A DNA stretch of 64,000 nt, from NCBI RefSeq assembly GCF_963921235.1, contig NC_086097.1, positions 31,250,001 through 31,314,000 on the forward strand, written 5' to 3'. The notes below the pieces were generated by a model that was given only the letters and a program-made list of their open reading frames with translations, was not told where the DNA came from and did not search any database. The stretch comes from Mobula hypostoma (lineage: Eukaryota). Position numbers and translations under genes: made by a program. Shown here one piece after another: positions 1,587-61,090 of this stretch (position 1 is its first letter; every line of letters begins with the position of its first letter).

Positions 1587-1809
1587 ACACACATCAAAGT
1601 TGCTGGTGAACGCAGCAGGCCAGGCAGCATCTATAGGAAGAGGTGCAGTCGACGTTTCAGGCCGATACCCTTCGTCAGGACTACGAAGGTCTCGGCCTGA
1701 AACGTCGACTGCACCTCTTTCTATAGATGCTGCCTGGCCTGCTGCGTTCACCAGCAACTTTGATGTGTGTTGCTTGAATTTCCAGCATCTGCAGAATTCC
1801 TGTTGTTTG
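1587..1809. mobile_element. Palindromic PLE-terminus mini-element (two 3' ends tail-out)
   Basis: About 90-bp near-perfect inverted arms. 16-bp TSD catctatcaccaagta at 1571-1586 and 1810-1825. Confidence 0.9.
1646..1682 (-). ncRNA. Minimal type I hammerhead ribozyme motif in a palindromic mini-element
   Basis: Minus strand reads AGUC-CUGACGA-AGGGUAUCGGCCU-GAAA-CGUC-GACUG. The plus-strand partner at 1683-1711 lacks the 5' part of the core. Confidence 0.8.
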
Positions 1810-4134
1810 CATCTATCACCAAGTACTGTATTCCCCAACATCCAGGTCATGCCATCTTCTCACAGCTACTATTGGGCAGGAGGTACAGAAGTCCAGAATC
1901 CCACATTACCAGAGTTGAGAAACAGCTACTTTCCTACAACCATAAGGTTCTTGAACTGATCTGCACAACTAACCAGCAATAGAACAGTATTTCTTGCATT
2001 ATTATGCTCTTGTCCCTGATTGCGTTGTATAGTCCTTTCTCTCTTCATTGTCTTGTATAATTTATGCTGTGTTGTCTGAACCTACGTATCCAAGATGCTG
2101 CTGCAGGTTTCTAATTATAACTCTACCTCCCTGTAAAAGTACGAGCACATAAGGCCTAGAAAAAATGGACATGGAGAGGATGTCTAAGATGAGAGGGCAC
2201 AGCCTCAGAACACAAGAATGACCCTTAGAAGAGATGAGGAGGAATTTCTTTGGCCAGAGGGTAGTGAATCTGTGAAATTCATTGCCACAGATGGCTCTGG
2301 AGGCCAAGTAACTGGGTATATTTAAAGTGGAGGTTGACAGGTTCTTGGATCAATAGGGTGTCAAAGGTTATGGAAAAAAGGCAAGAGAATAGGGTTGAGA
2401 GGGATAATAAAGCAGCCATGATGGAATGACGGAGTAGACTCGATAAGCCAAGTGGCTTGATTCTGTTCCTATGTCTTCTGGTCATGAACTAGCTGCCAGA
2501 GGAAGTGGCAGAGGTGGGTACAATTACAATATTTTGATTATATTTGGACAAGTGAATAGAGAGGAAATGGTTAAAGGGATATGAACAAAATTAAGTAATT
2601 GGGACTAGCTCACATAGGCACCTTGGTCCGACTGGATGAGTTCAGCTGAATGCTCTGTATTCCGTGCTGTTCAGCTCTGTAACTCGAACACACAGTACAG
2701 ACAAATGCAAGACCAACTACAAAATATCACAGTTTTACTTGCTTAATCTGCTGAGCTGGGACTTGAGGACCTGAGTTATAGGGAAAGGTTGATAGATTAG
2801 GATTTTATTCCCTAGAGCAGAGGAGAATGAGTGGAGATTTGACAGAAGTATACAAAATTAAGAGGGGTATAGATAGACTGAGTGCAAGCAGGCTTTTCCC
2901 TCCCTTAAATTGGGTGAGACTAGAACCAGAGATCATAGGTTAAAGATGAAAGGTGAAATGGTTAAGGAGAATATGTGGGGGAACTTCTTCTGAGGGTGGT
3001 GTGAGTGTGGAACGAGCTGCCAGCAGAAGTAGTGCATGCTGATTTGAATGCAACATTTAAGAGAAGTTTGGGAGGGGCATGGAGAGCCATGTTCCAGGTG
3101 TTGGTCGATGGAACAAGGCAGAATAACAGTTTGGTATGGACTAGATGGGCCGAAGGACCTAGTTCAATGTTGCAGTGCTCTATGATTTACAAACCTACAC
3201 TACAGTTCACATGCAATAGTGCTTCCTAACTTCTGAAAGGAATTTCAGTAATTCTCAGGCAGCGTACTTGAATCCTGAGCTCCACACACAATGGAAACAG
3301 ACCCTCAAATCCAATAGCTCTCTTCACTATCTTTAAAACTTCAAATAAGTCAGACCTTAATTCCAGAGAGTACAGGCCCATTCTGGGCTTTATCACTGAT
3401 CGGCCTAAATGCCTTTGCTTTCACTTGAGCATCTGCAAATTAATTCAGTTCGCCTGCTGCTGACAGCCTGCTGTGAGCCACGACCAGCAGTTTTACTTGA
3501 GTGTTGAAATTAATTGTGCTGGGGTGAACTGAGCTTCATTGTTCACTAAAGTCATGAACGTTCACCCAGGTGTGACTTTAGTTGAACATAATTAACGCAA
3601 TTCCCTCATCAGACCCACCAAGCATGGTGTGGTACCAAAGAACAGGATGGTTCCGAGTTCATTGTGATGCTAAGTGTGCTGAGGCTTGGGAAGAAGTTTT
3701 TTTTGTGAGAAGGCTGGCATACTCATGCTTACCCATTCAATGACCTGAGACAGTGCAGCTATGCCAACACTCTTGATAGTCGATTAGATTGTCTGTGACC
3801 AGGCTTCAAACACACAGAAGAGAAACTACATCTCAACACAGCTGCCACAATTTGTGTTAGTAATCCAAGATAATTAGATTCTTCTTTCAATTTCTGGTTA
3901 CGACGACCTTCAAAGATGTTGATGCCATTAAACATTCAAATGCTATCAGTTCTCCATCAGTACCCACAAAATTCAGTCTGATTAATGGAATAACTAGATG
4001 GCCACTACGCACTTTCATTGAAACCATGCAGTATCCAATAACCTCGCTGACTAGAGTTTTGGGACATGCTACAGGCACAAATTCAGCAGATGATCACGTA
4101 CACTGACCTGACATCTGATGTAAAGAATGTGAGT

Positions 4135-4641: not shown

Positions 4642-4954
4642 AAAGGGAGCTCCAAACCCCACCTTCACTAAATGTCAATCAACATCAACAGACAATAGCC
4701 CACTTCATACAGTTTCTTTAACACAGCCAATGATTTCAAAACAAACAAAACCAGGACACCTTGGTCAAATAGATACTTTTTTAAAGAAGCATCTTAAAGG
4801 AGGAAAAAAGGGGGGTGAAAGGGGAATGGAAAGAATTCTGTTTTACAACGGCTGAAGTGAGGTTAAAAATTGGGACAGGGCAGAGTCCTAGGAGCCTCAA
4901 TGTAGTTGGATGTGTTCATTAGGGTAGCTGGGGTAAGAAGTTGAAAAACAGGAT

Positions 4955-8523: not shown

Positions 8524-8751
8524 AAAAACACAAGAGACTGCAGATTCTGGAATCAGGAGCAACAAACAATCTGCTGGAGGAACTCAGCCAGTCAAGCAGC
8601 ATCTGTGGTGGGGGGAAAGAATTATTGATACTACAAGTCAAAATCCTACAAGACTAGATCCTGATGCAGAGCTTTGACCTGAAATATCGACACTGCTTTG
8701 CCCCCAAAGATGCTGCTCGACCCGCTGAGTTTCTCCAGCAGATAGTTTGTT
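8524..8751. mobile_element. Older palindromic PLE-terminus element
   Basis: Inverted arms aacaaacaatctgctggaggaactcagc...gcagcatct and agatgctgc...gctgagtttctccagcagatagtttgtt. Decayed hammerhead near 8657-8693. Confidence 0.7.
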
Positions 8752-10972
8752 CATCCACATCCCAGCATGTGTCAGCATCTGCAAGAGAGAAAATTCCTAC
8801 AATAAACCCTTCAGCATCTCTGGAGACATCAGTGTCACAAGCACTCTGAATCACTGCCTAGACTGTGAGAATCAGATGAAGTTCTTCCATGGCAGCCTCA
8901 CTCTCGGTCACTTGCTTAGATTACAGTTTTTAAAATGTAACATCACAAACTATTTTTTGCTAGCTTTTTGATATTTAAGCGCGGTTAACATTACTCAGTA
9001 TTGTTATCCCAACCAGGTATAAATTAGTTGTTGAGAAGATAAGACTTGGTGGCCGTCCCCACCTATGAACACCCAATTCTGTTAACACTGAACATCCATC
9101 TATGTTTTTTAGAGTCATAAAGCAATGCAGCATGAATACAGGCCCTTTGGCCCAACCAGTACATGCCGACCTCAATGCCTACCCAGGCTAATCTCAACTT
9201 CCAGCATTCAGCCCATATCCCTGTAAATCCTGCCCCTCCATGTAGCTGTCCAAGTGCCTCTTAAATGATACTATTGTACCTGCCTCAACCACTTCCTCTG
9301 GCAGCTCATTTCATATACTCACCACCTGCTGCATGAAGTTGCCCCTCAGGTCCTTTTTAAATCTTTCCCTTCTCACTAAACCAATGCTCCCTTGTTTTGG
9401 ACTCCCCTGCCCTGGGGAAGAGACTGTACCATTCACCTTTCCTATGCCCTTCATGATTTTAAACACTTCTATAAAGTCTACAGAGATATACAAAATTACG
9501 AGAGGTCTCGATAGGGCAAGAAGCATTTTTGTACCGAGGTTGGGTGAGACTAGAACTAGAGGTCATAGGTTAAGGGAAACATGAGAGGAAAGTTCTTCAC
9601 TCAAAGGGTGGTGCGACTGTAGAACGAGCTGCCAGCAGAAGTGGTGGATGCAGGTTCGATTTCAACATTTAAGAGAAATTTGGTGGATGGTATTTATCCG
9701 CTCGCAACCCACCCACCTGCCAGCTTGTACCCTCCCCCTCCACCAGCTTATTCTGACTTCTGCCTCCTTCCTCTCCAGTCCCAATGAACAGCCTCAGCCC
9801 AAAACCTCGACTGTTTATTTATTTCCATAGACGCTGCCTGACATGCTGAGCTCCTTCAGCACTTCACATGTGTGTTGCTCTGGATTTCTAGCATCTGCAG
9901 GATTGCCTGTGTTTATAGCTTGAACTCCTCTTCTGGGCTAATTGGGACATCATGATACTGCTGAGTGCCAGAAAATTAGCAGCAGCAGCCTTCCCCTTAC
10001 TTGATATGTGCTGTTTAAAAACAATCCAACAAGCTGCTTAGAAAAGTCAGAATTTAACCAATAAAGGACACTCATTGGGTGTAGTTCTTGCATTGCTTGC
10101 TGGAATCAGACCAAGAAGAACAAAGAAACTCAATGTTCCTTCCCCTTGAAGCAATTTCTCATGTATTGTATTAGGTATCACAACATGATACAGCTACAGA
10201 CATCTATAACAAGGGACTTTCTCATTAAAGATACACTGATGACTGCTGAATATGTCAGTATGTAGAACAAAACAGCCAAACGAAATGTTTAGAGACAGAC
10301 AAACTGAAATCAGGCACCTCATATGTTTCTTTCAAATGCTGCAAAGTACGTGCCATCCAACGTCGCTCTATCTGTGGCTGTTACTAGTTGGATTGCATCC
10401 CATCATAACAATAGTCAGCAGAGCAAAGCACTTCATTAACAAGACCAATGCATAAAATCGCAGGCGCCAAAGTAAATGTTCAGTGTCAGGAGATGGAAAA
10501 AATGAATGAATGAAAGAAGTTGCACCTCCGTAACAAGGCGAAGCTAAGGAGGGGAGAGATAATTGCACATTTGTTACAACTTGAACACAACACAAACTGG
10601 TTTGTTGAACTGCATGAGATGGTTCAAACAGACAGAGACAAGGAACTCTTGATTCAAACAAAGGGAGATCTGATGAACAAGCTCAGCCCAAAACCTTGAC
10701 TGTTAATTCCCCTTCATAGATGCTGCCTGACCTTCTGAGTTCTTTTTGTGTGTTCAAATTCAAAGTAAGTTTATTATCAAAGTACATGTATGTCACCATA
10801 TACAACCTTGAAATTCATTTTCTTGCAGACATACTCAGAAAATCCAAGAAACATAATAGAACCATTGAAAGACAGGACGGACAAACAACCAATGTGCAAG
10901 GCAACAATCTGTGCAAATACAAAAGGGAAAAAAAGAAATAATAATAAATAAACAAACAATAAATATCAAGTA

Positions 10973-11114
10973 ACACACACAAGCGCTGGAGGAACTCAGC
11001 AAGCCAAGCAACATCTACAGAAAAGAGTACAGTCAACTTTTCCGGCCTGAGTTCCTCCAGCATTTTGTGTGCGTTTCTTGGATTTCCAGCATCTGCAGAT
11101 TTTTTCTTGTTTGT
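10973..11114. mobile_element. Palindromic PLE-terminus element, internally deleted
   Basis: acacacacaagcgctggaggaactcag is inverted against ctgagttcctccagcattttgtgtgcg, followed by the full terminal hairpin. Confidence 0.7.
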
Positions 11115-11158
11115 GAATAAGATTGAAGAACATAAGATGAAGAGTCCTTGGAAGTGTC

Positions 11159-13421
11159 ACACACGAGGAAATCTGCAGATGCTGGAACTTCAAGCTACAC
11201 ACATGAAAGTTGCTGGTGAACGCAGGCCAGGCAGCATCTATAGGAAGAGGTACAGTCGACGTTTCGGGCCGAGACCCTTCGTCAGGACTAACTGAAAGAG
11301 ATAGTAAGAGATTTGAAAGTGGAAGGGAAGGGGGAGATCCAAAATGATAGGAGAAGACAGGAGAGGGAAGGGATGGAGCTAAGAGCTGGAAAGTTGATTG
11401 GCAAAAGGGATACGAGAGGATCGGGGACAGGAGACCTAGGGAGAAAGAAAGGGGGAGGGGGGAAGCCCAGAGGATGGGCAAGGAGTATAGTGAGAGGAAC
11501 AGAGGGGGAAAAAGGAGAGAGAGAGGGAAAAAAATACTAATAATAAAAAAATGAATAAATAATGGATGGGGTACGAGGGGGAGGTGGGGCATTAACGGAA
11601 GTTAGAGAAGTCAACGTTCATGCCATCAGGTTGGAGGCTACCCAGACGGAATAAAAGGTGTTGTTCCTCCAACCTGAGTGTGGCTTCATTTTGAGGAGGC
11701 TGTGGATAGACATATCAGAATGGGAATGGGATATGGAGTTAAAATGTGTGGCCACTGGGAGATCCTACTTTCTCTGGCGGACAGAGCGTAGGTGTTCAGT
11801 GAAATGGTCTCCCAGCCTGCGTCAGGTCTCGCCAATATATAGAAGGCCGCATTGGGAGCGCCAGATGCAGTATATCACCCCAGCCGACTCACAGGTGGAG
11901 TGTCGCCTCACCTGGAAGGACTGTCTGGGGCCCTGAATGGTAGTGAGGGAGGAAGTGTAAGGGCATGTGTAACACTTGTTCCGCTTACAAGGATAAGTGC
12001 CAGGAGGGAGATCGGTGGGAAGGGATGGGGGGGAGGGAGGGAAAGATATGCTTAGTGGTGGGATCCCATTGGAAGTGGCGGTGGCGGAAGTTACAGAGAA
12101 TAATATGTTGGACCCGGAGGCTGGTGGGTTGGTAGGTGAGGACAGGGGAACCCTATTCCTAGTGGGGTGGCGGGAGGATGGGGTGAGAGCAGATGTGCAT
12201 GAAATGGGAGAGATGTGTTTGAGAGCAGAGTTGATGGTGGAGGAATGGAAGCCCCTTTCTTTAAAAAAAAAGGACATCTCCTTCATCCTGGAATGAAAAG
12301 CCTCATCCTGAGAGCAGATGCGGCGGAGACGGAGGAATTGCGAGAAGGGGATGGCATTTTTGCAAGAGACAGGGTGAGAAGAGGAATAGTCCAGGTAGCT
12401 GTGAGAGTCAGTAGGCTTATAGTATACATCGGTAGTTAAGCTGCCTCCAGATATAGAGACAGAAAGATTAAGAAAGGGGAGAGAGGTGTCGGAAATGGAC
12501 CAGGTAAACGAGGGCATGGTGAAAGTTGGAGGCAAAGCTAATGAAGTCAACGAGCTCAGCATGTGTGCAGGAAGCAGCGCCAATGCAGTCATCGATGTAG
12601 CAAAGGAAAAGTGGGGGACAGATAACAGTATAGGCTTGGAACATGGATTGTTCCACAAAGTCAGCAAAAAGGCAGGCATAGCTGGGACCCGTACAGATGC
12701 CCATGGCTACACCTTTAGCTTGGAGGAAGTGGGAGGAGCCAAAGAAGAAATTATTAAGAGTAAGGACTAATTCTGCTACACAGAGCAGAGTGGTGGTAGA
12801 GGGGAACTGGTCAGGTCTGGAATCCAAAAAGCAGAGAGCTTTGAGACCTTCCTGGTGGGGGATGGAAGTATATAGGGACTGGACATCCATGGTGAAAATA
12901 AAGTGGTGGGGGCCAGGGAACTTAAAATCATCGAAAAAATTCAGAGCGTGAGAAGTGTCACAAACATAGGTGTGGGAAGGGATTGAACAAGGGGGGATAA
13001 AACAGTGTTGAGGTATGCAGAAATAAGTTCGGTGGGGCAGGAGCAAGCTGAGACAATGGGTCTACCTGGACAGGCAGGTTTGTGGATTTTGGGCAGGAGA
13101 TAGAAACGGGAAGTGCGAGGTGTGGGAACTATAAGATTGGTAGCAGTGGATGGGAGATCCCCTGAGCGGATAAAGTTGGTGATGGTATGGGAGACAATGG
13201 CTTGGTGCTCCTTAGTGGGGTCATGATCCAGGGGTAAATAAGAGGAGGTATCCGCGAGTTGTCGCTGTGCCTCGGCAAGGTAGCAGTCAGTACACCAGAC
13301 CACAACAGCACCCCCCCTTATCAGTGGGTTTTATTGTAAGGTTAGGATTAGCGTGGAGGGAGTGGAGAGCAGAGTGTTCGGAAGGAGTGAGGTTGGAATG
13401 GGAACAAGATGTGGTGAAGTC
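11159..13421 (-). mobile_element. Penelope-like retroelement, 5'-truncated, frameshifted copy
   Basis: ORF pieces 12941..13303, 12468..13046 and 11822..12679 carry the same RT and GIY-YIG motifs and are colinear with the 15.1-18.4 kb copy. Hammerhead at 11253-11289. Confidence 0.93.
11253..11289 (-). ncRNA. Minimal type I hammerhead ribozyme motif in PLE 3' terminus
   Basis: Minus strand reads AGUC-CUGACGA-AGGGUCUCGGCCC-GAAA-CGUC-GACUG: full core, stem I AGUC/GACU, stem II GGGU/GCCC, palindromic stem III ACGU, GUC cleavage triplet. Confidence 0.85.
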
Positions 13422-15239
13422 AAAAATGTGTCCATTTTTTGAAAGTGTGTCCATTATTTGGACGAACAGTTCGGTGATGGGGCAAGTGAAGTTGTGTGAA
13501 TTTGTCCCCACTGATTCAAAAGCCTAATAGTTGAGGGGTAATAACTGCTCTTGAAACTGGTGGCGTGGGTCCTGAGAGCGAGAAGAGAGCATGGCCTGGG
13601 TGGTGGGGGCTCCTGATGACGGATGCTGATTTCCTGCAACAACGCTCTGTGTAGATGTGCCCAATGGTGGGGAGGGCTTTACCCGTGATGGACTGGGTCA
13701 TATCCACTACTTTTTGTAGGATTTTCCATGCTTAAGACTTCCAGCATCTGCCAAATCTCGTGTTTATGAAAGGGAATTCTACTGTGAATGTGGTTAAGGC
13801 TATTAAAGCATGGAATTAGTTGGGAGATTAGCGTGACAATGAATGGTGATCAGGGAAGGGGTTCAGAGTGATACGTGCATCGTGATTAACGAGACTGGTT
13901 GGGCTGCAGGGCCTGTGTCCATGCTGTTTTACTCTATAACTCCTGATAAGGACAAGTGACACCAAGCTGAGTAACCAAAGAATCTGTATGAAATGGTTCT
14001 GTATTGGGAACATGTACCAGTAAATCGCTTTATATTACATTTGAAACTCCCACCAATTGGTTGCTTTACCCATTAAAAGACATTGAAGTTCCACAATAAC
14101 ATTCTTTTCCCAGCTCTCCACGTTACCCTATTCCCCATTCTATAAGCTAGCATCTTAAAGGTAAACAGATGTAATCCAAAGCTCCCAAAACCATCAGTAA
14201 GTATGTAACAATGACCCATAAAGCCATAACACATAGGATCAGAATTCGGCCCATCAAGTCTGTTATGCCATTCCATCATGGTTTATTTACTATCCCTCTC
14301 AACTCCATTCTCCTGCCTTCTTCCCATAACCTTTGACACCCTTACTATTCAAGAATCTACCAGCTTCCATTTTAAATATACCCAATGACATGGCCTCCAC
14401 AGCCATCTGCAGCAATGAATTTCACAGACTCATCAGCCTCTTGGCTAAGGAAATTCCTCCTCATCTCTGTTTTAACCAAGGAATACAGCCCATTTTCCAA
14501 GGAATCAATCTGGTAAACTTTTATTATACTCTTCCTTCAGCAAATATTTGGTTGCTGTTTATTGACTACAACTCAGTGTTCAGCACTATCACCTAATCAG
14601 TATTAATCACCAAGGTTCAAACCTGGGCCTCAGTAACTGGATCCTCAACTTTCCTATTGGGAGACCACAGTCAATGCAGTTCAGAAACAATATCTCCTCC
14701 CTACTGACAAATCAACAAAGGTGCACTTCAGGGATGCACGTTTTAGCCCCCTGTTCTCTCTTTCTACACTCATGACCGTGTGACTAAGCAGAGTTCAAAC
14801 ACCATCTATAAATTCACAGGGGATACCACTGTTGTCACCAAAGACTCCTGCAAATTTCTATAGATGTACAGTGAAGAGCATTCTGATTGGTTGCATCACC
14901 ACCTGGCATGGAGGCTCCAATGCAAGAGGCTGCAGAGGGTTGTAAACTCAGCCACCTCCATCACAGGCACAACCCATCCCACCATCAAGAGCACCTTCAT
15001 GAGGTGGTGCTCCAAGACCATGGCTTCTATCACTAAGCACCCTCACCATCTGGGACATGCCCTCTTCTCACTCACACTCAATTATTCAAGAACAGCTTCT
15101 TCCCATTTGCAATCAGATTTCTGAATTCATCAACACTTACTCATACAACAGGAATTCTGCAGATGCTGGAAATTCAAGCAACACACACCAAAGTTGCTGG
15201 TGAACGCAGCAGGCCAGACAGCATCTCTAGGAAGAGGTG

Positions 15240-15276
15240 CAGTCAACGTTTCAGGCCAAGACCCTTCGTCAGGACT
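15240..15276 (-). ncRNA. Minimal type I hammerhead ribozyme motif (GUU triplet variant)
   Basis: Minus strand reads AGUC-CUGACGA-AGGGUCUUGGCCU-GAAA-CGUU-GACUG. Confidence 0.8.
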
Positions 15277-15571
15277 AACTAAAGGAAGAGTGATTAAGGG
15301 ATTTGAAAGTTGGAGGGGGAGGGGGAGATGCAAAATGATAGGAGAAGACAGGAGGGGGAGGGATGGAGCCAAGAGCTGGACAGGTGATTGGCAAAAGGGA
15401 TATGAGAGGATCATGGGACAGGAGGCCCAGGGAGAAAGACGGGGGGGGGGGACGACCCAGAGGATGGGCAAGGGGTATATTCAGAGGGACAGAGGGAGAA
15501 AAAGGAGAGTGAGAGAAAGAATGTGTATATAAAAATAAGTAACAGATGGGGTACCAGGGGGAGGTGGGGCA

Positions 15572-18376
15572 TTAGCGGAAGTTAGAGAAGTCGATGTTCA
15601 TGCCATCAGGTTGGAGGCTACCCAGACGGAATATAAGGTGTTGTTCCTCCAACCTGAGTGTGGCTTCATTTTTACAGTAGAGGAGGCCGTGGATAGACAT
15701 GTCAGAATGGTAATGGGATGTGGAATTAAAATGTGTGGCCACTGGGAGATCCTGCTTTCTCTGGCGGACAGAGCATAGGTGTTCAGCAAAGCAGTCTCCC
15801 AGTCTGCGTCGGGTCTCGCCAATATATAAAAGGCCACATCGGGAGCACCGGACGCAGTATATCACCCCAGCCGACTCACAGGTGAAGTGTTGCCTCACCT
15901 GGAAGGACTGTTTGATGCCCTGAATGGTGGTAAGGGAGGAAGTGTAAGGGCATGTGTAGCACTTGTTCCGCTTACACGGATAAGTGCCAGGAGGGAGATC
16001 AGTGGGGAGGGATGGGGGGGACGAATGGACAAGAGAGTCGCGTAGGGAGTGATCCCTGCGGAAAGCGGGGGGGGGAGAGGGAAAGATGTGCTTAGTGGTG
16101 GGATCCCGTTGGAGGTGGCGGAAGTCACGGAGAATAATATGTTGGACCCGGAGGCTGGTGGGGTGGTAGGTGAGGACCAGGGGAACCCTATTCCTAGTGG
16201 GGTGGCGGGAGGATAGAGTGAGAGCAGATGTACGTGAAATGGGGGAGATGCGTTTAAGAGCAGAGTTGATAGTGGAGGAAGGGAAGCCCCTTTCTTTAAA
16301 AAAGGAAGACATCTCCCTCGTCCTAGAATGAAAAGCCTCATCCTGAGAGCAGATGCGGCAGAGACGGAGGAATTGCGAGAAGGGGATGGCGTTTTTGCAA
16401 GAGACAGGGTGAGAAGAGGAATAGTCCAGATAGCTGTGAGAGTCAGTAGGCTTATAGTAGACATCAGTAGATAAGCTGTCTCCAGAGACAGAGACAGAAA
16501 GATCTAGAAAGGGGAGGGAGGTGTCGGAAATGGACCAGGTAAACTTGAGGGCAGGGTGAAAGTTGGAGGCAAAGTTAATAAAGTCAACGAGTTCTGCATG
16601 CGTGCAGGAAGCAGCGCCAATGCAGTCATCGATGTAGCGAAGGAAAAGTGGGGGACAGATACCAGAATAGGCACAGAACATAGATTGTTCCACAAACCCA
16701 ACAAAAAGGCAGGCATAGCTAGGACCCATACGGGTTCCCATAGCTACACCTTTAGTTTGGAGGAAGTGGGAGGAGCCAAAGGAGAAATTATTAAGAGTAA
16801 GGACTAATTCCGCTAGACGGAGCAGAGTGGTGGTAGAGAGGAACTGGTTAGGTCAGGAATCCAAAAGGAAGTGTAGAGCTTTGAGACCTTCCTGATGGGG
16901 GATGGAAGTATATAAGGACTGGACATCCATGGTGAAAATAAAGCGGTGGGGGCCAGGGAACTTAAAATCATCGAAAAGTTTAAGAGCGTGAGAAGTGTCA
17001 TGAACATAGGTAGGAAGGGATTGAACAAGGGGGGATATAACCGTGTCGAGGTATGCAGAAACAAGTTCGGTGGGGCAGGAGCAAGCTGAGACAATAGGTC
17101 GGCCAGGACAGGCAGGTTTGTGGATCTTGGGTAGGAGGTAGAAACGGGAAGTGAGAGGTGTGGGAACTATAAGGTTGGTAGCAGTGGATGGGAGATCCCC
17201 TGAGTGGATAAAGTCGGTGATGGTGTGGGAGACAATGGCCTGGTGCTCCTTAGTGGGGTCACAATCGAGGGGTAAATAAGAGGAGGTATCCGCGAGTTGT
17301 CGCTGTGCCTCGGCAAGGTAGAGGTCAGTATGCCAGACTACAACAGCACCCCCCTTATCGGTGGGTTTAATAATAAGGTTAGGATTAGTGCGGAGGGAGT
17401 GGAGAGCAGAGCGTTCCGAAGGAGTGAGGTTGGAATGGGAACAAGGTGCAGTGAAGTCGAGACGGTTGATGTCCCGTCGGCAGTTAGCGATAAAGAGATC
17501 CAGAGCAGGCAGAAGACCAGAGCGGGGTGTCCATGAAGAAGAGGAGGGTTGAAGATGGGAGCAGGGGTCATCGGTGGGGGTGAAAGAATCCTTGCCAAAC
17601 AAGTAGGCTCGGAGACGGAGACGGCGGAAGAAAAGATCCGCATCATGGCGAACACGGAACTCGCTGAGGTGTGGGCGAAGGGGGACAAACGTGAGGCCCT
17701 TACTGAGAACAGAGCGTTCTGCCTCCGACAGTTGAAGGTCGGAGGGGATGGTAAAGACCCGGCACGGATGAGAGCTGGGATCAGAGGGGGGAGGGGGTAG
17801 GCTGGGGGTGTCAGTGGAGAGGGGATGGTTGGGGTGAGAGGAAGATGGAGCCTCTGAGTACCCAGGAGCTGACGATGGGATCTGAAAGAGACGGAGTTGC
17901 AGAGTATTGGTGGGGGAAGGGGAGACGGGAGTCACAATAGCAGCACATAAAGACCCGGCCTGGAGTTCAAGGCTGGAGTCTCAGTTGGTGGTTGCGCAAT
18001 CACTTTGAATATCTCCATGGTCGTTGCTGGAGTCCGGGTTTTGAATATGCCCTGAGGTGTTGGAGCCGGCGAGATCAATGGCAGAGGCAATCTGAAGTTC
18101 ATGCCTGCTAGTTTCATGGCCAGCAGGCTCTGGAGTCCGTAGATGTAGGATCTTGCGATCTTTGCCTAACATGACAAAGTCAAAAAAACGGCGATTGCAG
18201 GCGTGAATCCGACGGAGGATGAAATAACGGGTAGGACCATTACAGACGGCGAAGAAAGTGTCCCGAAGTTGTGGAAGGGTCTGGGATAGGGACACCAAGT
18301 ACCTCCTCATGGCGGAGAGAGTCACCTTCAGAGCTTGACGGGAGAAGCGGCGAGAGGCAGAGTCAATAAAATGTGA
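15572..18376 (-). pseudogene. PLE polyprotein (N-terminal helical/Pro-rich region, reverse transcriptase, GIY-YIG endonuclease), ~935 codons, two in-frame TGA
   Basis: Single frame with no frameshift. Stops at 17981-17983 and 16853-16855; the latter is AGA in the other two copies. No native start is visible. Confidence 0.9.
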
Positions 18377-18378
18377 AC

Positions 18379-24400: not shown

Positions 24401-25654
24401 TCCTCTGAACCCTCACCAATGCCAGCACAGCTTTTCTTAGGTCAGGAGCCCAAAACTGTTCACAATACTCAAGGTGAGACCTCACCAGTGCCTTATAAAG
24501 CCTCAGCATCACATCCCTGCACTTGTATTCTAAACCTCTTAAAATGAATGCCAATATTGAATTTGCCTTCCTCACCATCGACTCTACTTGCAAGTTACGC
24601 TTTCGGGCGTTCTGCACGAGGACTCCCAAGTCACGGTGCATCTCAGATTTTTGGACTTTCTCCCCATTTCGAAAATAGTCTGCACGTTTATTTCTACTAC
24701 CAAAGTGTATGACCATGCATTTTCAAACATTGTATTTCATTTGCCACTTTCTTGCCCATTCTCTTAATCTGTCTAAGTCCTGTTTCCTCAACACTACCTG
24801 CTCCTCCACCAATCTTCAGATCATCTGCAAATTTGGCAACAAAGCCATCTATTCTGTCATCTAAATCATTGATATACAGCACAAAGGGAAGTGGTCCCAA
24901 CACCGACCCCTGCAGAACACCACTAATCACTGGCAGCCAATCAGTAAAGGATCCTTTTATTCCCACTCGCTGCCTCCTACCAATCGGCCAATGCTCTAAC
25001 CATACCAGTAACTTTCCTGTAATACCATGGGCTCTTAATTTGGTAAGCAGCCTCATGTGTGGCACTTTGTCAAAGGCCTTTTTAAAAGTCCAAATATAAA
25101 ACATCCACTGCATCTGCTTTATCTATCCTACCTGTAATCTCCTCAAAGAATTCCAACAGGTTTGTCAGGCAAGATTTTCCCTTAGGGAAACTATGCTGAC
25201 TATGCCCTATCTTGCCCTGTGTCACCAAGTACTCCATAACCTCATCCTTAACAATTTACTCCAACATCTTTCCATACACTGAGGTCAGGCAAACTGGTCT
25301 ATAATTTCCTTTGTGCCTCCTTTCTCCTTTCTTAAAAGAGTGGAGTGACATTTGCAATTTTCCAGTCCTCTGGCACCATGCCAGAGCCCAATGATCTTTG
25401 AAAGACCATTACTAATATCTTCACAATCTCTACTGCTACCCCTTTCAAAAACAGTAGGGTGCTGTTCATCTGGTCTGGGTGACTTCGGTACCTTTAGGTC
25501 TTTCAAGCTTTTTTGAGCACTTTCTCCCTTGGAATAGTACTGTACTCACTTCTCTTCTCTCACACTCTTCAACATCTGGCACACTGCTAGTGGCTTCCAC
25601 AGTGAAGACTGATGCAAATACGCATTTAGTTCATCTGCCACCTCTTTGGCCCCT

Positions 25655-37457: not shown

Positions 37458-38278
37458 GTCCAAAGTTGTGCTGAGTCCCTCACAAAATTGTGGGGTGACA
37501 CAAGTTGCAGAACAGTTAGCACAACGATATCGTAGGTCAGGGGATTGGAGTTTAACATGGTGTCCTCTGTAAAGAGTCTCTGTACATCCTCCCCGTGGAA
37601 TACGTGGGTTTCCTCCCAGGATCTAAAGACGTATCAGGTAGGTTAATTGCTCATAGTAAATTGTCCCATGATTAGATCAGTGTTAAATAAGGGTTGTTAT
37701 GAGTTGCTGGGCAGCTTAGCTGAAAGGGCCAGAAACATCTATTCTGTGCTGTATCTCTAAATAAAATAAATAAATTGAACGTCTACAGAGGTTCTGTTGA
37801 AAGTATCCTGACCAGTTGCATCATGGTCTGGTACAGCAATTCAAACATAAGAAACTGCAGAAAGTAGTAAACTCCACTCAGTACATCATGGACATATCCC
37901 TCCCCATCGGTAGTATCTACAGGAGGTGCTGCCTTAAGAATATAACATCCAGCAAATATCCCCACCATCTGGTCCAGGCCCTGTTCTCAGTTTCCATCGG
38001 GCAGGGGGTAGAGAAGGCTGAAGTCAAAAACCACCAGCTTCAAGAACAGCTACTTCCCTTCAAGGGTTTATTTCCTGAACCCGCAACACTTTGGTCGAGC
38101 AACACAACGATCACTTTCATCCTTCTGCACTGAAATGTTCCAATTGTTTCTTTCTTGTAAAATTGTGTATAAATTATGTTTATGTTTCCTCATGAATGCT
38201 GCTTATCTGATGCTCTGTGACACTGCTGCAAGTAAGTTTTTCATTGCACCCGACAATACTTGTGTATGTGACAATAAA

Positions 38279-38502
38279 CTCACAAAAAGCTGGAGGAACA
38301 TGGCAGGTCAGGCAGCATCTATGGAGGGGAATAACAATCCACGTTATGGGCTGAGACCCTTCATCGTGACTGCTGAAGGGTCTCCGGCCAAAGCATCAAC
38401 CACTTATTCCCTTACACAGATGCTGCCCGACATGCTTAGTCCCGCCAGCTCTTTGTGTATGTTGCTCTGGATTTCCAGCATCTGCAGCATCACTTGAGTT
38501 TA
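38279..38502. mobile_element. Older palindromic PLE-terminus element
   Basis: Inverted arms with two decayed hammerheads back to back (about 38335-38400). TSD tgacaataa at 38269-38277 and 38503-38511. Confidence 0.75.
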
Positions 38503-52063: not shown

Positions 52064-55000
52064 ACCAGTTACCTTACTGAATATCTACGGACCAAACAGG
52101 GATGACCCGGAACTTTTTAGACGAGTTCTAGGATTGATACCAGAGGTCTCCAGTACTAACCTGATTACTGGAGGGGATTTTAATTTTGTTCTGGATACAT
52201 ATCTAGACAGATCTTCCAATCAGAGGGCATTACCATCAAAGGCAAGTAAACTGCTGAGAACATATGTAGACGATATGAATCTGTGTGAGATACAGAGATT
52301 ATTCAACTCAACAGGGGGAGAGTATTCATTCCACTCTAGAGTTCATAATGTACATACTAGGATTGACTATTTCCTCCTTGATGGCAAAGTACTACCACAA
52401 GTCGATAACGTAAGATATCATAATATTGTCATCTCAGACCACAGCCCTGTTACTTTTTCACTGGAGCTGGCTGAATTGACCCAAATACATAGAAATTGGA
52501 GGTTTAGTCCTCAGCTACTTACAAACCCAAACTTTTGTGAGTATTGAGAATCGCAAATTTTTTTTGAGACAAATGATAATAGTGAAACACCCCCAGGACT
52601 ACTATGGGAAACATTTAAAGCTTACGTTAGAGGATGTATAATTTTTCAGTCTTCCCTAAAGAAATGTAGTAGAGCAGGACAAATAGAACTACAAACATTT
52701 GTAGAAGAACAAAAACGTAAACTAGACACAGAGAATGTGTGACAACCACCCGCAGAAAAATACAACAGAATTTCAGCATTAAAATACAAACTGAACCAAA
52801 TACTCTCAGGAAGGATGTGCACAGCTCTTATGTTTACAAAACAGAATTTCTTTGAATTTGGTGATAGACCGCACAAATTGCTGGCAAGACAGCTAAGCAA
52901 ATTGGAAAGTGATCGGGCCATTCATAAAATTAAATCAGACTCGGGCGCTCCATTGATGTCACACAAAGACATTAATCAAAGATTCTGTCAGTATTATGAA
53001 AAATTATATGCATCTCAATCTAATGTACCGACGGGGAGCGTGCACACATTTCTGGACATTTGTAGGCTACCTTCACCCAATCTGACAGAGTGTCAGGCTT
53101 TGGAAGCAGAGATTACAAATGACGAAATAGTAAGAACAATAAGATCCCTGAAAATGGCAAGAGTCCAGGTTCGGATGGAATAGGTAATGAGTTTTATAAG
53201 TTTAGTGACTTATTAGCACCTTACATGGTAAGGATGTACAGAAAGTCATTTGAAATTGGCAGGTTATCTCAAACCCTGAACGAGGCCATTATCACACTTA
53301 TTCCGAAGAGGACAAAGACCCAGAAGAAGTAGGATCTTATAGGCCGATTTCACTGCTGAATTCGGATCAGAAAATTTTGGCTAAAATGCTGGCAAGGAGA
53401 CTCAATCAGCAGATAAATAAATTGGTACACTATTATTCTTTCCATAATATCAGGCGCCTTCTTAGTATAATGCATTCCCGAAGACATCCTAAGGAAGACC
53501 TTATAATATTAAGTTTAGATGCTGAGAAAGCATTCGACCAAGTGGAATGGCAATACCTCTATGAGGTTATGAAAAAATCTGGAATGGGAGACAAATTTAT
53601 AACTTGGATCAAGCTACTGTACAGTAACCCCAGTGCTAAAATACTAACTAATCAGACCCTCTCGGAACAATTCAGTTTGCACAGGGGCGCAAGACAGGGC
53701 TGTGCATTAAGTCCATTATTGCTTGTATTGGCCCTGGAACCACTGGCGGAGACTACACGTTCTCACCCCAAAATTTATGGGTACAATACAAAATATACTA
53801 TCAACAAAATATCCCTTTATGCGGACAATGTTTTGTTGTTTGTAACAAAACCATATATTACTATTTCAGTTTTGCTGGAAATAGTCAATTTATTTGGCAC
53901 TTTCTCGGGGTATAAGATTAACTGGGGGAAAAGTGAATTATTCCCGGTCCGAGTAGAAGAACAGGAGGGGCTTAAACAATTTCCATTCAAAATAACCCTT
54001 GAGAAGTTTACTTATCTTGGAATTGTAAAAACCAAAAAGTATAGTTCTCTATTTGAAGCAAATTTTATCCCTCTAATTGAAAAGATTAAAAAGAAAATAA
54101 AATTTTGGAAGACACTCCCAATTTCTTTAGTGGGTAGAGTAAATACAGTCAAGATGATCTTTCTTCCCCAACTGATCTATCTATTTCAGTACCTGCCCCT
54201 CGATCTTACCAAAACCTTTTTTAAAGAATTAGATTCGATAATTCTACCTTTTATATGGAATTATATAAGTCCATCGAATTAGAAAAGAACATCTCTGCAA
54301 GAATAAGACTTGTGGGGGGCTGGCACTACCCAACTTTATTTTTTATGACTGGGCTGCTAACGTTAGCCATATAGCATACTGGATAGATGATACAGTTGTA
54401 CTTCCCGGATGGTTGGAGATGGAGCATGAGGATTGCCTACCATATTCCATAGGGGCAATCATTATGTCCCCTATTTGGTTAAATAAATACTGTTATAGAG
54501 GCAATTCCATTATCCATAGCACCATACAGATGTGGAGACAAATGGGGAAGCATTTGAAACTCAGAACATTATGTTTTCTTGTTACATAGATGTGTTGCTG
54601 GCTGTTGTGGCTCACTGGGGTGGAAGAGACTGTTCCATGATGTATAATGAAATAAACTAATTCAGTAAATAAAATTCAAAGATGAACACAGAACACAACA
54701 GCACAGTATGGACACTTTGGCCCACAATGTTGTGCCGAATTTTTAACCTACATCAGCGAACCCCTCTTTTATCCCCTCATGTATAGATGGGGCCTTTGAT
54801 GCATGGTGAGCATTAGGGATACGCAGCGTTGGAGACTTACACACACAAGGGATTCTTGCATCATTCCGGCAGCTCCAGAACAAATTCAGATTGCAAAAGA
54901 ATCATTTTTTCAGGTATCTCCAGCTATGACACTATATAAGATCACATCTTTCTGGTTTTGAGACGGCAGAACCTGATAAATCAGATAATCATCGCCTATC

Positions 55001-56230
55001 TGCATGATGCCATACAAAACAAGTGTCACACAACAATGGATAATATTAAAAAAGAGTGGGAAAAGGAGTTGGGTACAGAGATAGAGGAGGTTATATGGAA
55101 TGAGGCTTTGGAGTATGTCAACTCCTGTTCCATCAATGGCAGGCATTGTTTAATACAATTTAAAATCCTACATAGACTACATTACTCAAAAGTAAGGATT
55201 CATAAAATATTCGGAGAAAGCAATTTTCCAAATTTTTTATAAAAATCTACAGGATAGCCATCAAGTCCAGAGGCCTTACCAGATTGCATTGAAAAAATTG
55301 CTTTATGAATTTCAGCTTCAGTAATTTGGGCATCAAGAGTTTTTTGATCCTCAACAGAAATTTTAGGAAAAGCAATCTTTTGTAAGAAAGCATTGATTTT
55401 AGAAGAATCTACTGGACATTGACATTTATAAAGTTCAGTATAAAAATCTTGAAAAATCTTATTAATTTCTTCATATTCCCAAGCCAGGGTACCATCTTTC
55501 CTGTGGATTTTCAATCCTATATAGACTACGTTACTCAAAAGTAAGGATACATAAAATATTCCCAGAGGTGTCCCCAATGTGTGAGAAATGCAAGTCCTCG
55601 GAGGCAAATTTATTACATAATTATGCTTCATGTCCCAGGATACAAGAGTATTGGAAACAAATATTTGAGGTCCTATCGAAGGTACTAAAGGTTCAGATAA
55701 TACCAGACCCCATTTTAATAATTTTTGGAACTTCTGCGAGGTCAAATAAATTCCAGGCTACCCAGCAACAACTCCTGACCTATGGCATACTTAATGGAAA
55801 GAAACTCATACTGATGTTCTGGAAAAAGGAGGGAACTCCATCACTCAGACAATGGCTGGCTGCATTAATGGATACTCTGCATCTCGAGAGGGTAAGATAC
55901 GTTATCAAGGACAGACTCAAGGAATTTGAAAAAATCTGGCAACCATTACTGTTGTATTTAGAAGAGACCGACAGCTGAACTAAGTGTGGGGGGGGCGGTA
56001 GGACCTAAACAGCACAAATGGGAGGGATGAGGGGAGGGTAGGGCTGGGAAGGGGAAAGGAGACGGGGTGGTAGGGTTTCCTTTGCTTTTTGCCTGTTTAC
56101 TATACATACATTCATTTGATTTTCATTATGTTGTTATAAGAAAGAAAAGAAAAAAGAAGCGTTGTACTTTAGGACATTGTCGGTTATGGTTAAGCTGATG
56201 TTGCTTCACAATAAAAACATTTGAAAACAG
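52064..56230 (+). mobile_element. L1/Tx1-clade LINE, 5'-truncated ORF2 (APE endonuclease, RT, CCHC), degenerate
   Basis: LLNIYGPN, GGDFN, RIDYFL, SDHSP (APE); YRPISLLN, LSLDAEKAFD, RQGCALSPLL, LYADN (RT); CEKC...H...C. AATAAA and A-rich tail near 56210-56228. 12-bp TSD atgtccctaa(t/c)g at 52052-52063 and 56231-56242. Confidence 0.92.
55213..55512 (-). mobile_element. Internal ORF2 fragment of a different L1 family, inverted, inside the L1
   Basis: INKIFQDFYTELY...ITEAEIHKAIFSMQSGKASGLDGYPVDFYKKF. Flanked by a 49-bp duplication at 55164-55212 and 55513-55561. Confidence 0.85.
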
Positions 56231-56329: not shown

Positions 56330-56542
56330 AACAGTCACAAAATGATAAGAGGAACTCAGCAGGTCAGGTAGCATCTATGGAGAGGAATAAAGAGTCAACT
56401 TTTCGGGCCAGCACCCTTCACCAGGACTTGATGAAGGACACAAGTCCTTATGAAGGCTTTCGGCCCAAAACATCAACTGTTTATCCCTCCCCATTGATGC
56501 TGCCTGACCTGTTGAATTTCTCCAGCATCTTGTACGTGTTAC
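56330..56542. mobile_element. Palindromic PLE-terminus element in a CR1 tail
   Basis: cagcaggtcaggtagcatc is inverted against gatgctgcctgacctgttg. Decayed hammerheads on both strands at about 56393-56479. Confidence 0.75.
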
Positions 56543-58294
56543 ACTGACTTACCCTTATATGTTCCTCTGATCAACTTAAAATTATGCCACCTCATAATAG
56601 CCTCTTAAGCCTTGTATTAGCCATTTCCACTCTGAGAAACAAATCTCTGACTGTCCATTCTCATCTTGTACAACTCTTTCAAGACACCCCTCATGTTCTT
56701 TTGCTCTAAAGAAAAAAGCCCGAGCTCGCTCAATCAATCCTTGCAAGCCAAATCATTTAAGTAACAGCCATTGTCTTCAGTATTAATTAATTCTTCTCCA
56801 GTGTTTGAACAAGCAGAGGCATGGAAGTTTGCCAGGCAAGTGGAGGCTCTCACAGTCCTGACTTCCCTCCCATAAAACAACAGAGCAACAAAGCAGGATT
56901 TGCAGCAACTAACCACGTCATACAACATCAACACAAAGCAAATAGGCTGCCTGCCCACAAGCAACTTAATCTCTGAATCAGTGTTTGCCATTGCCGGTTA
57001 CAGACCGTGCAATCTGAATGATTGGGAAAAGAATGAGATCATGAGAACACAAGTACAGCTGGAGATGAGGATCCACGTCAAAGGGTGACTGCGAAGCTTT
57101 TCACATCAAGCAAGCAAAGAGCCAGTCACCTTTGAAATAAATCCTGGTCCTTGGAGTAAGAAATAGAAGGTCTTGCTCACAATTCCATGGTGAGTCAGGT
57201 TGCTGCCGACAGAATCACTGCCATAACAGAGAATGCAGGAACATAGAACAGTACGTTCAGCCCCTAACATCTGAGCTGCAAAAATTTTGCAGATGCTAGA
57301 AATCCAAAGCAACACAGACAAAATCCTACAGGGACTCAGCAGGTCAGGCAGCATTTAAGGAGAGGAATAAACAGTTGGCACTTTGGGCTGAGACCATAGT
57401 TCCCTCTAAGCTGTGCGCATGCACACACGTTCTTCAACCAGCGCACAAAGGAAATTAATGTGCGCACAAAAGGTTAGTTACTTAAAATAATGTAGTAATT
57501 AATAATTATACTTATTGAAAATAATCTTTTAGCTGTTTCTGTTAACTAGTTAGTCGGTTTTTCAAATACCACAATGCACGTCACTAATTTATGTCACCTC
57601 ACCTTTCCTGTTCCGGTTTGTACAGCTGCATCACGGCGGCAGCCATGTTTGGCAGACAGTGTTCAGTGTTTGTAAAGTTTACAAAGATCTGCTTCAATTC
57701 CTGTAGATAGCTTACTAAGTTTTTATTGAAAACAATATTGATTCACTATGTTGAATTCAAAAGAAGTGAAGGGCATGAAGTGCAAAAGAACTGTAAGTTT
57801 GTTTAAAGTTGAATGGCTTAACATATAGTAGAAACTGCCACACAGAAAGCTCGTGAGGTCATGAACATTCAGCTAAGAAAAATACTTATGTATGATTTGG
57901 AAACTGGAGTTATTTGTTTATATTGTCGTGATGCGAAAGTTGCTGGAGAATTCGCTAGTGGAAAGAAATGGGATGATATTTGGAAACTTGACTTTTTGAA
58001 GCATCATCTGGCAAGAAAATCGCATTTGGATGGTGTACAAAAGCTCAGGCAACAGAACCCGTCATTACCCATTATAGGAGTGCTACGCATGTTACGGTCG
58101 AGTGCTCATGAGCGAGAGTGAAAACGATCAAACCCAGAGGAGATCAAAGTTGAGGTACAAGAATGGTCAGCTTTTGATTTCTCCACAATTGCAGATTGTG
58201 ACTTCACATTTGGCGATGAACAAGTTAATGCCTTATGTCTAAAATATCATGATTTTCTAGCTGAAAATACTGTAACAGTTAGACAGTTTAATGA

Positions 58295-61090
58295 AACAAC
58301 ACACATCAAAGTTGCTGGTGAACGCAGCAGGCCAAGCAGCATCTGTAGGAAGAGGCGCAGTCGACGTTTCAGGCCGAGACCCTTCGTCAGGACTAACTGA
58401 AGGAAGAGTGAGTAAGGGATTTGAAAGTTGGAGGGGGAGGGGGAGATCCAAAATGATAGGAGAAGACAGGAGGGGGAGGGATAGAGCCAAGAGCTGGACA
58501 GGTGATAGGCAAAAGGGGATACGAGAGGATCATGGGACAGGAGGTCCGGGAAGAAAGACGGGGGGGGGGACCCAGAGGATGGGCAAGAGGTATATTCAGA
58601 GGGACAGAGGGAGAAAAAGGAGAGTGAGAGAAAGAATGTGTGCATAAAAATGAGTAACAGATGGGGTACGAGGGGGAGGTGGGGCCTTAGCGGAAGTTAG
58701 AGAAGTCGATGTTCATGCCATCAGGTTGGAGGCTACCCAGACGTTGTTCCTCCAACCTGAATGTGGCTTCATCTTTACAGTAGAGGAGGTCGTGGATAGA
58801 CATGTCAGAATGGGAATGGGATGTGGAATTAAAATGTGTGGCCACTGGGAGATCCTGCTTTCTCTGGCGGACAGAGCGTAGATGTTCAGCAAAGCAGTCT
58901 CCCAGTCAGCGTCGGGTCTCGCCAATATAGAAAAGGCCACATCGGGAGCACCGGACGCAGTATATCACCCCAGTCGACTCACAGGTGAAGTGTTGCCTCA
59001 CCTGGAAGGACTGTTTGGGGCCCTGAATGGTGGTAAGGGAGGAAGTGTAAGGGCATGTGTAGCACTTGTTCCGCTCACACAGATAAGTGCCAGGAGGGAG
59101 ATCAGTGGGGAGGGATGGGGGGAGGACGAATGGACAAGGGAGTTGTGTAGGGAGCGATCCCTGCGGAATGCAGAGAGAGGCGGGGAGGGAAAGATGTGCT
59201 TAGTGGTGGGATCCCGTTGGAGGTGGCGGAAGTTACGGAGAATAATATGTTGGACCCGGAGGCTGGTGGGGTGGTAGGTGAGGACCAGGGGAACCCTATT
59301 CCTAGTGGGGTGGCAGGAGGATGGAGTGAGAGCAGATGTACGTGAAATGGGGGAGATGCGTTTAAGAGCAGAGTTGATAGTGGAGGAAGGGAAGCCCCTT
59401 TCTTTAAAAAAGGAAGACATCTCCCTCATCCTAGAATGAAAAGCCTCAACCTGAGAGCAGATGCGGCGGAGACGGAGGAATTGCGAGAAGGGGATGGTGT
59501 TTTTGCAAGAGACAGGGTGAGAAGAGGAATAGTCCAGATAGCTGTGAGAGTCAGTAGGCTTATAGTAGACATCAGTGGATAAGCTGTCTCCAGAGACAGA
59601 GACAGAAAGATCCAGAAAGGGGAGGGAGGTGTCGGAAATGGACCAGGTAAACTTGAGGGCAGGGTGAAAGTTGGAGGCAAAGTTAATAAAGTCAACGCGT
59701 TCTGCATGCATGCAGGAAGCAGCGCCAATGCAGTCATCGATGTAGTGAAGCAAAAGTGGGGGACAGATACCAGAATAGGCACGGAACATAGATTGTTCCA
59801 CAAACCCAACAAAAAGGCAGGCATAGCTAGGACCCATACGGGTGCCCATAGCTACACCTTTAGTTTGGAGGATGTGGGAGGAGCCAAAGGAGAAATTATT
59901 AAGAGTAAGGACTAATTCCGCTAGACGGAGCAGAGTGGTGTAGAGGGGAACTGATTAGGTCTGGAATCCAAAAAGAAGCGTAGAGCTTTGAGACCTTCCT
60001 GATGGGGGATGGAAGTATATAAGGACTGGACATCCATGGTGAAAATAAAGCGGTGGGGGCCAGGGAATTTAAAATCATCGAAAAGTTTAAGAGCGTGAGA
60101 AGTGTCACGAACATAGGTCGGAAGGGATTGAACAAGGGGTGATAAAACAGTGTCGAGGTATGCAGAAATGAGTTCGGTGGGGCAGGAGCAAGCTGAGACA
60201 ATAGGTCGGCCAGGACAGGCAGGTTTGTGGATCTTGGGTAGGAGGTAGAAACGGGAAGTGCGGGGTGTGGGAACTATAAGCTTGGTAGCAGTGGATGGGA
60301 GATCCCCTGAGTGGATAAAGTCGGTGATGGTGTGGGAGACAATGGCCTGGTGCTCCTTAGTGGGGTCACGATCGAGGGGTAAATAAGAGGAGGTATCCGC
60401 GAGTTGTCGCTGTGCCTCGGCAAGGTAGAGGTCAGTATGCCAGACTACAACAGCACCCCCCTTATCGGCGGGTTTAATAATAAGGTTAGGATTAGTGCGG
60501 AGGGAGTGGAGAGCAGAGCGTTCCGAAGGAGTGAGGTTGGAATGGGGACAGGGTGCGGTGAAGTCGAGACGGTTGATGTCCCGTCGGCAATTAGCGATAA
60601 AGAGATCCAGAGCAGGCAGAAGACCAGAGCGGGTTGTCCATGAAGAAGAGGAGGGTTGAAGACGGGAGAAGGGGTCATCGGTGGGGGTGGAAGAGTCCTT
60701 GCCGAAGAAGTAGGCTCGGCACGGAGACGGCGGAAGAAAAGTTCCGCATCGTGGCGAACACGGAACTCGCTGAGGTGTGGGTGAAGGGGGACAAAGATGA
60801 GGCCCTTACTGAGAACAGAGCGTTCTGCCTCCGACAGTTGAAGGTCGGAGGGGATGGTAAAGACCCGGCACGGATGAGAGCTGGGATCAGAGGGGGGAGG
60901 GGGGAGGCTGGAGGTGTCAGTGGAGAGGGGAGGGTTGCGGTGAGAGGAAGATGGAGCCTCTGAGGGCCCAGGAGCTGACGGTGGGATCTGAGGAAGACGG
61001 GGCTGCGGAGTGGTGGTGGGGGAAAGGGAGACGGGAGTCACAATAGCAGCACTTGAAGACCCGGCCTGGAGTTCAAGGCTGGTGTCAAAA
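58295..61090 (-). mobile_element. Penelope-like retroelement, 5'-truncated, inserted in a hAT transposon
   Basis: ORF pieces 60445..61110 and 58998..59849 are very similar to the 15.1-18.4 kb copy. Perfect 14-bp TSD agacagtttaatga at 58281-58294 and 61091-61104. Confidence 0.95.
58358..58394 (-). ncRNA. Minimal type I hammerhead ribozyme motif
   Basis: Minus strand reads AGUC-CUGACGA-AGGGUCUCGGCCU-GAAA-CGUC-GACUG, with an intact core. Confidence 0.85.

Follow-up and report, generated by a model that had tools for sequence, protein, structure and literature searches.

What do hammerhead ribozymes do for the retroelements that carry them, and can their scattered copies act on host RNA? This question is raised by a 64,000-nucleotide stretch of Mobula hypostoma DNA (NCBI RefSeq assembly GCF_963921235.1, contig NC_086097.1, positions 31,250,001 to 31,314,000 of the forward strand), here called the window and numbered from its first letter. 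A sequence-only reading of the window had described four minimal type I hammerhead motifs carried by Penelope-like elements (PLEs) of one family, and proposed that the family processes its RNA by dimeric self-cleavage and that dispersed intact copies could cut host transcripts. We conclude that these copies are very probably lone, slowly decaying passengers whose RNA templates had not been cleaved, and that any function belongs only to tandem master copies of the element. In PLEs the hammerhead is kept across animals, yet it cleaves poorly and was dispensable for insertion in the sole system reconstituted so far. Its role can be read well from a genome in which one family has left very many dated copies, because the 5' ends of insertions tell cut from uncut templates and decay curves tell of host selection against intact motifs.

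Four Minimal Hammerhead Motifs

A strict descriptor, defined by the core, a 4-bp stem II, an NUH triplet and a 4-bp stem I, recovered the same four motifs that had been flagged, all on the minus strand, and gave no match on the plus strand. In 200 Markov-shuffled windows it returned 0.01 matches on average and 1 at most, which rules out chance occurrence of the four. Along the minus strand the motifs read AGUC CUGACGA A (GG GU/GUA..GCC C/U) GAAA CG UC/UU GACUG. They are copy D at 1646..1683 (predicted cut between 1651 and 1650), copy C at 11253..11290 (predicted cut between 11258 and 11257), copy A at 15240..15277 (predicted cut between 15245 and 15244), and copy B at 58358..58395 (predicted cut between 58363 and 58362).

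The complete CUGANGA/GAAA/NUH core reported earlier is present in all four copies, with GUU rather than GUC preceding the cut in copy A. Stem I, previously given as 4-5 bp, is made of four Watson-Crick pairs and one U·G, and helix II has 4 bp with a tetraloop. Stem III is indeed reduced to the palindrome ACGU (15.2-16.2) in every motif, helix III being absent in the monomer. One unpaired extra A lies between A9 and 10.1 in all four motifs; in copies A, B and D it could alternatively pair with U11.1. The 10.1-11.1 pair is G·U in these three copies, of which copy B has GUC, and copy C is the sole copy with both GUC and G10.1-C11.1. Of the 21 copies in the window that span the motif, 10 have G-C here and 8 have G·U. 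A GUU triplet and a G10.1·U11.1 pair both lower hammerhead activity. Each motif contains four CpG sites. No rates for GUU or G10.1·U11.1 were found in the available text of PMC1636495, PMC544870 and PMC6155905. The motifs are not independent, as three of the carriers are 87-95% identical over 2.3-2.8 kb, and a scan of Rfam 15 gave no hammerhead model among its 10 matches at E ≤ 5. Their identity as PLE-type minimal hammerheads is secure, and we regard it as close to certain.

The motif is bordered by two stretches that resemble 3' splice sites. A polypyrimidine tract followed by CAG lies directly upstream (15277-15300, minus strand, and likewise in the other copies), and a second pyrimidine run with YAG, followed by an ATG, lies about 15 nt past the cut (15222-15240, minus strand, again likewise in the other copies). 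A conserved reading frame from the core ACG through the tail was rejected, as the stop positions differ among the four copies.

The Carrier Element

The Penelope-like carrier claimed by the sequence-only reading was borne out by reverse transcriptase (RT) and GIY-YIG/CCHH domains upstream of three of the motifs, and by relatives that keep the same architecture with other paired stems. Element A (15145..18378, minus strand) is a 5'-truncated PLE of 3.2 kb whose ends are approximate, with a duplication of only 6 bp. Its single open reading frame (ORF; 15572..18378, minus strand) is broken by two in-frame stops and encodes an N-terminal region, DKG, the RT containing YIDD, a linker of CX4CX2C form and a CCHH-bearing GIY-YIG nuclease. 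In the read-through protein, translated through both stops with X at each, YIDD stands at residue 601, CX4CX2C at 821 and VIY-CxxC-YIG at 858, followed by two His. Roughly the first 80 residues present in relatives are missing from this element. Its 3' pseudo-long terminal repeat (pLTR; 15145..15571, minus strand) consists of a pyrimidine-rich 3' untranslated region of about 300 nt, the hammerhead, and about 95 nt downstream that include an optional tail. Element B (58295..61090, minus strand), 5'-truncated and frameshifted, is 95% identical to A and is flanked by a 14-bp target-site duplication (58281-58294 and 61091-61104). Element C (11157..13421, minus strand) is likewise 5'-truncated and frameshifted, belongs to a second subfamily with 87% identity to A and B, and has no convincing target-site duplication. 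The motifs of A, B and C sit in the 3' pLTR about 300 nt past the ORF stop and about 65-105 nt from the 3' end of the element.

Of the 8000 candidates scored in a protein search, 1245 passed E ≤ 1e-20, and the best named match, at 69%, came from the bamboo shark Chiloscyllium punctatum. Relatives bear PF00078 and, in part, PF01541. The Pfam scan of window pieces was blank for 7 of the 8 PLE frames, and a PDB search with the read-through protein gave no match at E ≤ 1. By the features described in PMC8557442, the carrier is assigned to the endonuclease-bearing PLEs of Neptune or Nematis type, on motifs rather than on a tree. Neptune is the type reported in vertebrates, according to bioRxiv 10.64898/2026.07.22.740005. 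We take the carrier to be a Neptune-like element, recently active and of very high copy number. The two TGA stops are private to copy A, with a sense codon at both positions in more than 99% of the contig depth of one sequencing run (X1). A selenocysteine reading of these codons was rejected on this depth.

Copies Probably Made from Uncut RNA

A hidden Markov model of the pLTR end found 28 homologues in the window, 17 on the minus and 11 on the plus strand. The cut site (+28 from C3) is the start of none of these ends and is spanned by 26 of the 28; the other two begin at about +38 and +57 from C3, old-copy ends being uncertain by about 10 nt. The absence of ends at the cut site indicates that the templates were copied uncut. 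The insertions are 5'-truncated, with target-site duplications and often an inverted partner. No second pLTR was found in the window upstream of A, B or C, leaving each with one ribozyme.

The abundance of the family was viewed through 4 of the 24 listed sequencing runs, all compared with element A as contigs and two of them DNA-type. More than 327,000 contigs per DNA-type run map on element A. The summed contig depth of these two runs, which is not equal to copy number, is about 90-fold higher in the hammerhead bin than at the ORF 5' end, a slope that fits heavy 5' truncation. Among the rows listed for run contigs on A, no variant or joint lies inside the motif. Contig ends at 15240 reveal other subfamilies that share the motif and have a different sequence directly after stem I. 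Core conservation among subfamilies, whose absence the sequence-only reading had counted against itself, was found: the majority sequence of the young and of the old subfamily retains every core letter as well as the pairing, and the bases right after stem I differ. The window itself offers only one change in pairing, on one side of the outer stem I pair (U·G or C-G). About 43% of its bases repeat within it.

Only the four flagged motifs among the 28 pLTR ends have an intact core. From 22 old copies, the 17 that span the motif were kept for a decay test and the 5 that end inside it were dropped; an intact core remains in 0 of the 17. Matches fill 144 of 166 cells of the non-CpG core, against 315 of 356 for the flank downstream (p = 0.57). 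G12, which lies within a CpG, is retained in 6 of the 17 copies. Even between the young elements A and B, where 4.1% of sites differ, 28 of the 112 CpG sites differ. Dispersed copies thus show no sign of core protection, and their core decays like the flank, fastest at CpG. The four flagged motifs are intact because the copies are young, not because they are working.

These observations suggest how the family spreads. Published work on the anole element PAc (Frangieh et al. 2024, PMC11167929) describes reverse transcription that initiates inside the RNA at the tail, with unprocessed RNA as the main substrate. It also reports that the ribozyme depends on the element's protein, that catalytic mutants have no effect on insertion, and that no RNA-seq reads end at the cut site. 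Following such published PLE biology, reverse transcription in the present family would begin internally at the tail just past the hammerhead and read through it, and each insertion, even a short one, would thus receive one motif from uncut RNA. Two motifs would share one RNA only in rare tandem masters (pLTR-ORF-pLTR), where the upstream motif would form the start of the ORF message. Dimer cleavage in such masters would be slow and probably protein-assisted, and may trim or linearise a minority of transcripts. Selection would be confined to the tandem masters, and deamination of methyl-C at the four CpG sites would destroy the motif with age. Dimeric self-cleavage in the master copies of the family, as first proposed from the sequence, is plausible.

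Probable Selection on the Motif, from Distant Relatives

Relatives were represented by the best 80 of 289 confirmed metagenome loci. The strict descriptor found 6 matches in them and a relaxed version 12, compared to 0-1 in 20 shuffles each. The relatives with a motif have the core or a U3-A8 variant of it, mostly the extra A and G10.1-C11.1, different paired stems, and the palindromes ACGU, AGCU, AAAUUU or ACGCGU. As the descriptor requires pairing, these matches show presence of the motif and are not an independent covariation score. A MAFFT alignment of ten motifs misaligned two with long stems, and the pairs were taken from descriptor output. A degenerate motif scan of metagenome contigs gave 0 matches. 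That distant relatives carry this architecture with stems altered yet still paired suggests that the motif is probably under selection in active masters.

Several points weigh against this account of passengers and tandem masters. The 64-kb window holds no partial tandem with a 5' pLTR and no full-length or tandem master. The recently spread subfamily (A, B and D) shares G10.1·U11.1, unlike the conserved pair. A simple pattern picked up a motif in only 4 of the 14 relative loci that extend 400 nt or more past the ORF. The flank match in the decay comparison is biased upward, as the flank helped to find the copies, and the motif-based placement of the carrier also belongs on this side.

One full-length relative, L008, has its hammerhead at 317-360, and the ATG in its core (A6 U7 G8) is the first ATG of a 1049-codon ORF. 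In the window the corresponding core triplet is ACG in young copies and ATG in old ones. The variants with U3-A8 replacing C3-G8 were seen at L027:2789-2830 and in L056 (minus strand, near 1766); the former lies 285 nt past the ORF, has its stems intact, and also carries U at position 6. A further relative, L043:1-6450, has a 111-nt direct terminal repeat, as in a circular or tandem assembly, and contains a PLE-like ORF, two more long ORFs and an upstream hammerhead with an AAAUUU palindrome.

Head-to-Head Insertions and the Hammerhead 5' Edge

Some pLTR ends are joined head to head, which raises another role for the motif. The insertion that contains copy D is 223 bp long (1587..1809) and lies within a 16-bp target-site duplication (1571-1586 and 1810-1825), with its junction at about 1679-1685. 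The motif at 1646 is part of one arm of an 89-nt, 97% identical inverted repeat (arms 1581-1669 and 1688-1776), and the plus arm lacks the core CUGA. Three old pairs, at 8536..8771, at 38272..38499 (with a 9-bp duplication) and at 56349..56539, also turn at the hammerhead 5' edge. In a fourth old pair, at 10964..11113, the arms begin at about +8 and +57 from C3 and the turn is not at this edge.

It is possible, though doubtful, that reverse transcription tends to stop at the 5' edge of the motif, whether by reaching a 5' end of the RNA or a splice junction or by pausing, and that the cDNA there folds back on CAG/CUG to make head-to-head mini-insertions, giving the motif a non-catalytic role. 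In 4 of 5 pairs both arms begin at -13 to +3 from C3, which is true of only 1 solo copy in 18 (Fisher test, p = 0.003, for a range chosen post hoc). A single fold-back register, at the short CAG/CUG inverted match between stem I and core, accounts to within 1 nt for three of the junctions, which come from different subfamilies. The polypyrimidine tract and CAG directly upstream of the motif suit such a stop, as does a Drosophila virilis intron that, according to PMC4209133, terminates at the helix I 5' end. In addition, L027 has a 158-bp palindrome of another family that turns at the same region. However, there are only five pairs, with the stated uncertainty of old-copy ends, and the inverted arm of L007 begins 46 nt upstream of C3. 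Self-priming and head-to-head junctions that form palindromes have already been described for PLEs (PMC3846280), and microhomology combined with strong 5' truncation may yield the pattern without any ribozyme fold.

A Relic, a Cutter of Host RNA, or a Retrozyme

The hammerhead could instead be a dead relic that does not cleave even in masters, kept since it overlaps a promoter, a start codon or a protein-binding site. The G10.1·U11.1 pair of the A/B/D subfamily and the strong predicted misfolding described below would suit such a relic. So would the normal insertion of the anole catalytic mutants and the lack of reads ending at their cut site (PMC11167929), and the success of Naiad elements that thrive without canonical hammerheads (PMC8557442). 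We nevertheless consider a dead relic unlikely, as young and old subfamily majorities keep core and pairing while the bases after stem I differ. Relatives at 34-50% protein identity keep the core, the extra A, mostly G10.1-C11.1 and the palindrome, with different stems. A conserved core with different stems is more than reading-frame overlap alone would demand.

The sequence-only reading had further suggested that intact copies could cut host transcripts. By analogy with the protein-dependent anole ribozyme, many intact sense-strand motifs in pre-mRNAs might be folded in pairs by the element's protein, through ACGU and swapped stems I on one or two RNAs, and cut host transcripts appreciably where that protein is expressed. 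If true, a vertebrate genome would carry a burden of ribozymes under the control of a transposon protein. The very high copy number of the family, the location of A and C 4 kb apart on the same strand, and the in vitro activation of such a ribozyme by a PLE protein (PMC11167929) would favor this outcome. All four intact motifs also lie on one strand, a bias that is not significant (p = 0.125, by eye) beside the 17 minus and 11 plus homologues.

Folding calculations argue against it. The predicted monomer fold is a hairpin in which the core GACG pairs with CGUC. The active dimer was computed at -10.9 to -16.7 kcal/mol compared to -18.8 to -25.8 kcal/mol for two such misfolded monomer hairpins, tertiary contacts lying outside the model. 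The double-hammerhead fold was computed to be 8-11 kcal/mol worse than two monomers and 14-19 kcal/mol worse than the best co-fold. In a context of 60-350 nt, stem I has a probability of 0.16-0.43 in C and of about 0 in the other three copies. For the insertion around copy D the predicted fold is a hairpin of -180 kcal/mol in which the motif is buried. In published tests even tandem motifs show little activity: Cervera and De la Pena (2014, PMC4209133) describe such motifs as inactive as monomers and of low activity as dimers, and Li et al. (bioRxiv 10.64898/2026.07.22.740005) report that 1 of 9 Xenopus dimers cleaved. A search for host exons among 290 unmasked stop-to-stop frames of at least 45 aa found none, a screen that short or Pfam-less exons would escape. 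With solitary copies, copy D locked in its hairpin, an unfavorable dimer fold and a core lost with age, the suggestion did not hold up, and appreciable cutting of host transcripts is very improbable.

The 290 frames yielded only LINE-type RT or endonuclease matches and one Tc1-type match. They include endonuclease and RT pieces of a LINE of L1/Tx1 type in decay (52065-54586, plus strand, and 55200-55978), LINE RT fragments at 24697-25122 (minus strand) and 25458-26174 (plus strand), and a weak helix-turn-helix match to a Tc1/mariner transposase (29867-30049, plus strand, E = 7e-4).

The least credible reading would make each copy a unit of a tandem retrozyme, non-autonomous and producing circular RNA: tandem pLTR derivatives are reported in one chondrichthyan genome (bioRxiv 10.64898/2026.07.22.740005), and a joint of 15276 to 15166 in run X5, from motif 5' edge to tail, could mark a 110-nt tandem unit or an inversion, but the window has no tandem units and three of the motifs adjoin 2.3-3.2 kb of ORF sequence.

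Comparison with Known Systems

The association of hammerheads with PLEs, their minimal architecture, the dimer model and dispersed single copies are already published for PLEs of fish, amphibians and reptiles, and PLE expansion in shark introns has been reported (10.1101/443036). The present motifs add one family to the known list. No published account of the hammerhead of this family was found in a search that left Repbase and Dfam outside, and the supplements of PMC4209133 and of the 2026 preprint may list the family.

The closest match is to the minimal hammerheads of metazoan PLEs described in PMC4209133, which include Xena, Poseidon and Neptune of fishes. Like the motifs here, these have a type I core, a helix I of 4-5 bp, an extra nucleotide between A9 and 10.1, and a palindromic 15.2-16.2 without helix III. 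They too lie in the pLTR, mostly as single dispersed copies of truncated elements with some opposite-strand pairs. Helix II is 4 bp here, compared to 7-8 bp in the schistosome families, and G10.1·U11.1 in three of the four intact copies differs from the conserved G10.1-C11.1 of that class. The present host is a cartilaginous fish, a group that PMC4209133 does not appear to name in its main text.

The carrier shares with the Neptune clade of PMC8557442 a single ORF with DKG and RT followed by a C-terminal GIY-YIG with CCHH, as well as 5' truncation, an inverted 5' partner, an optional tail and target-site duplications. Its CX4CX2C corresponds to the CX2-5CxxC zinc finger that links RT and endonuclease in Neptune and Nematis and not in Poseidon, whereas the partial tandems with a 5' pLTR of the Neptune clade have no counterpart in this window. 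Naiads, from the same source, differ in having an N-terminal nuclease and a conserved selenocysteine UGA; the nuclease here is C-terminal and the TGA codons are private mutations.

PAc, a Poseidon element of Anolis carolinensis (PMC11167929), likewise has its hammerhead shortly upstream of the tail and makes insertions from uncut RNA. Its ORF begins in stem II, and as a Poseidon it is without the zinc finger of the linker; the core triplet of young copies in the window is ACG, and the ORF start inside the core of L008 resembles the overlap of ORF and hammerhead in PAc. The non-LTR retrozymes of Li et al. (2026 preprint) also bring type I hammerheads related to pLTRs into vertebrate repeats, but they are tandem units with at least two motifs, while those in this window stand alone or in inverted pairs.

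Arkhipova et al. (2013, PMC3846280) described PLE insertions joined head to head which, as here, have inverted pLTRs within a single target-site duplication, and proposed self-priming. Their account predates the finding of hammerheads in PLEs and does not appear to tie the junctions to the ribozyme, whereas in this family 4 of 5 pairs turn at the hammerhead 5' edge.

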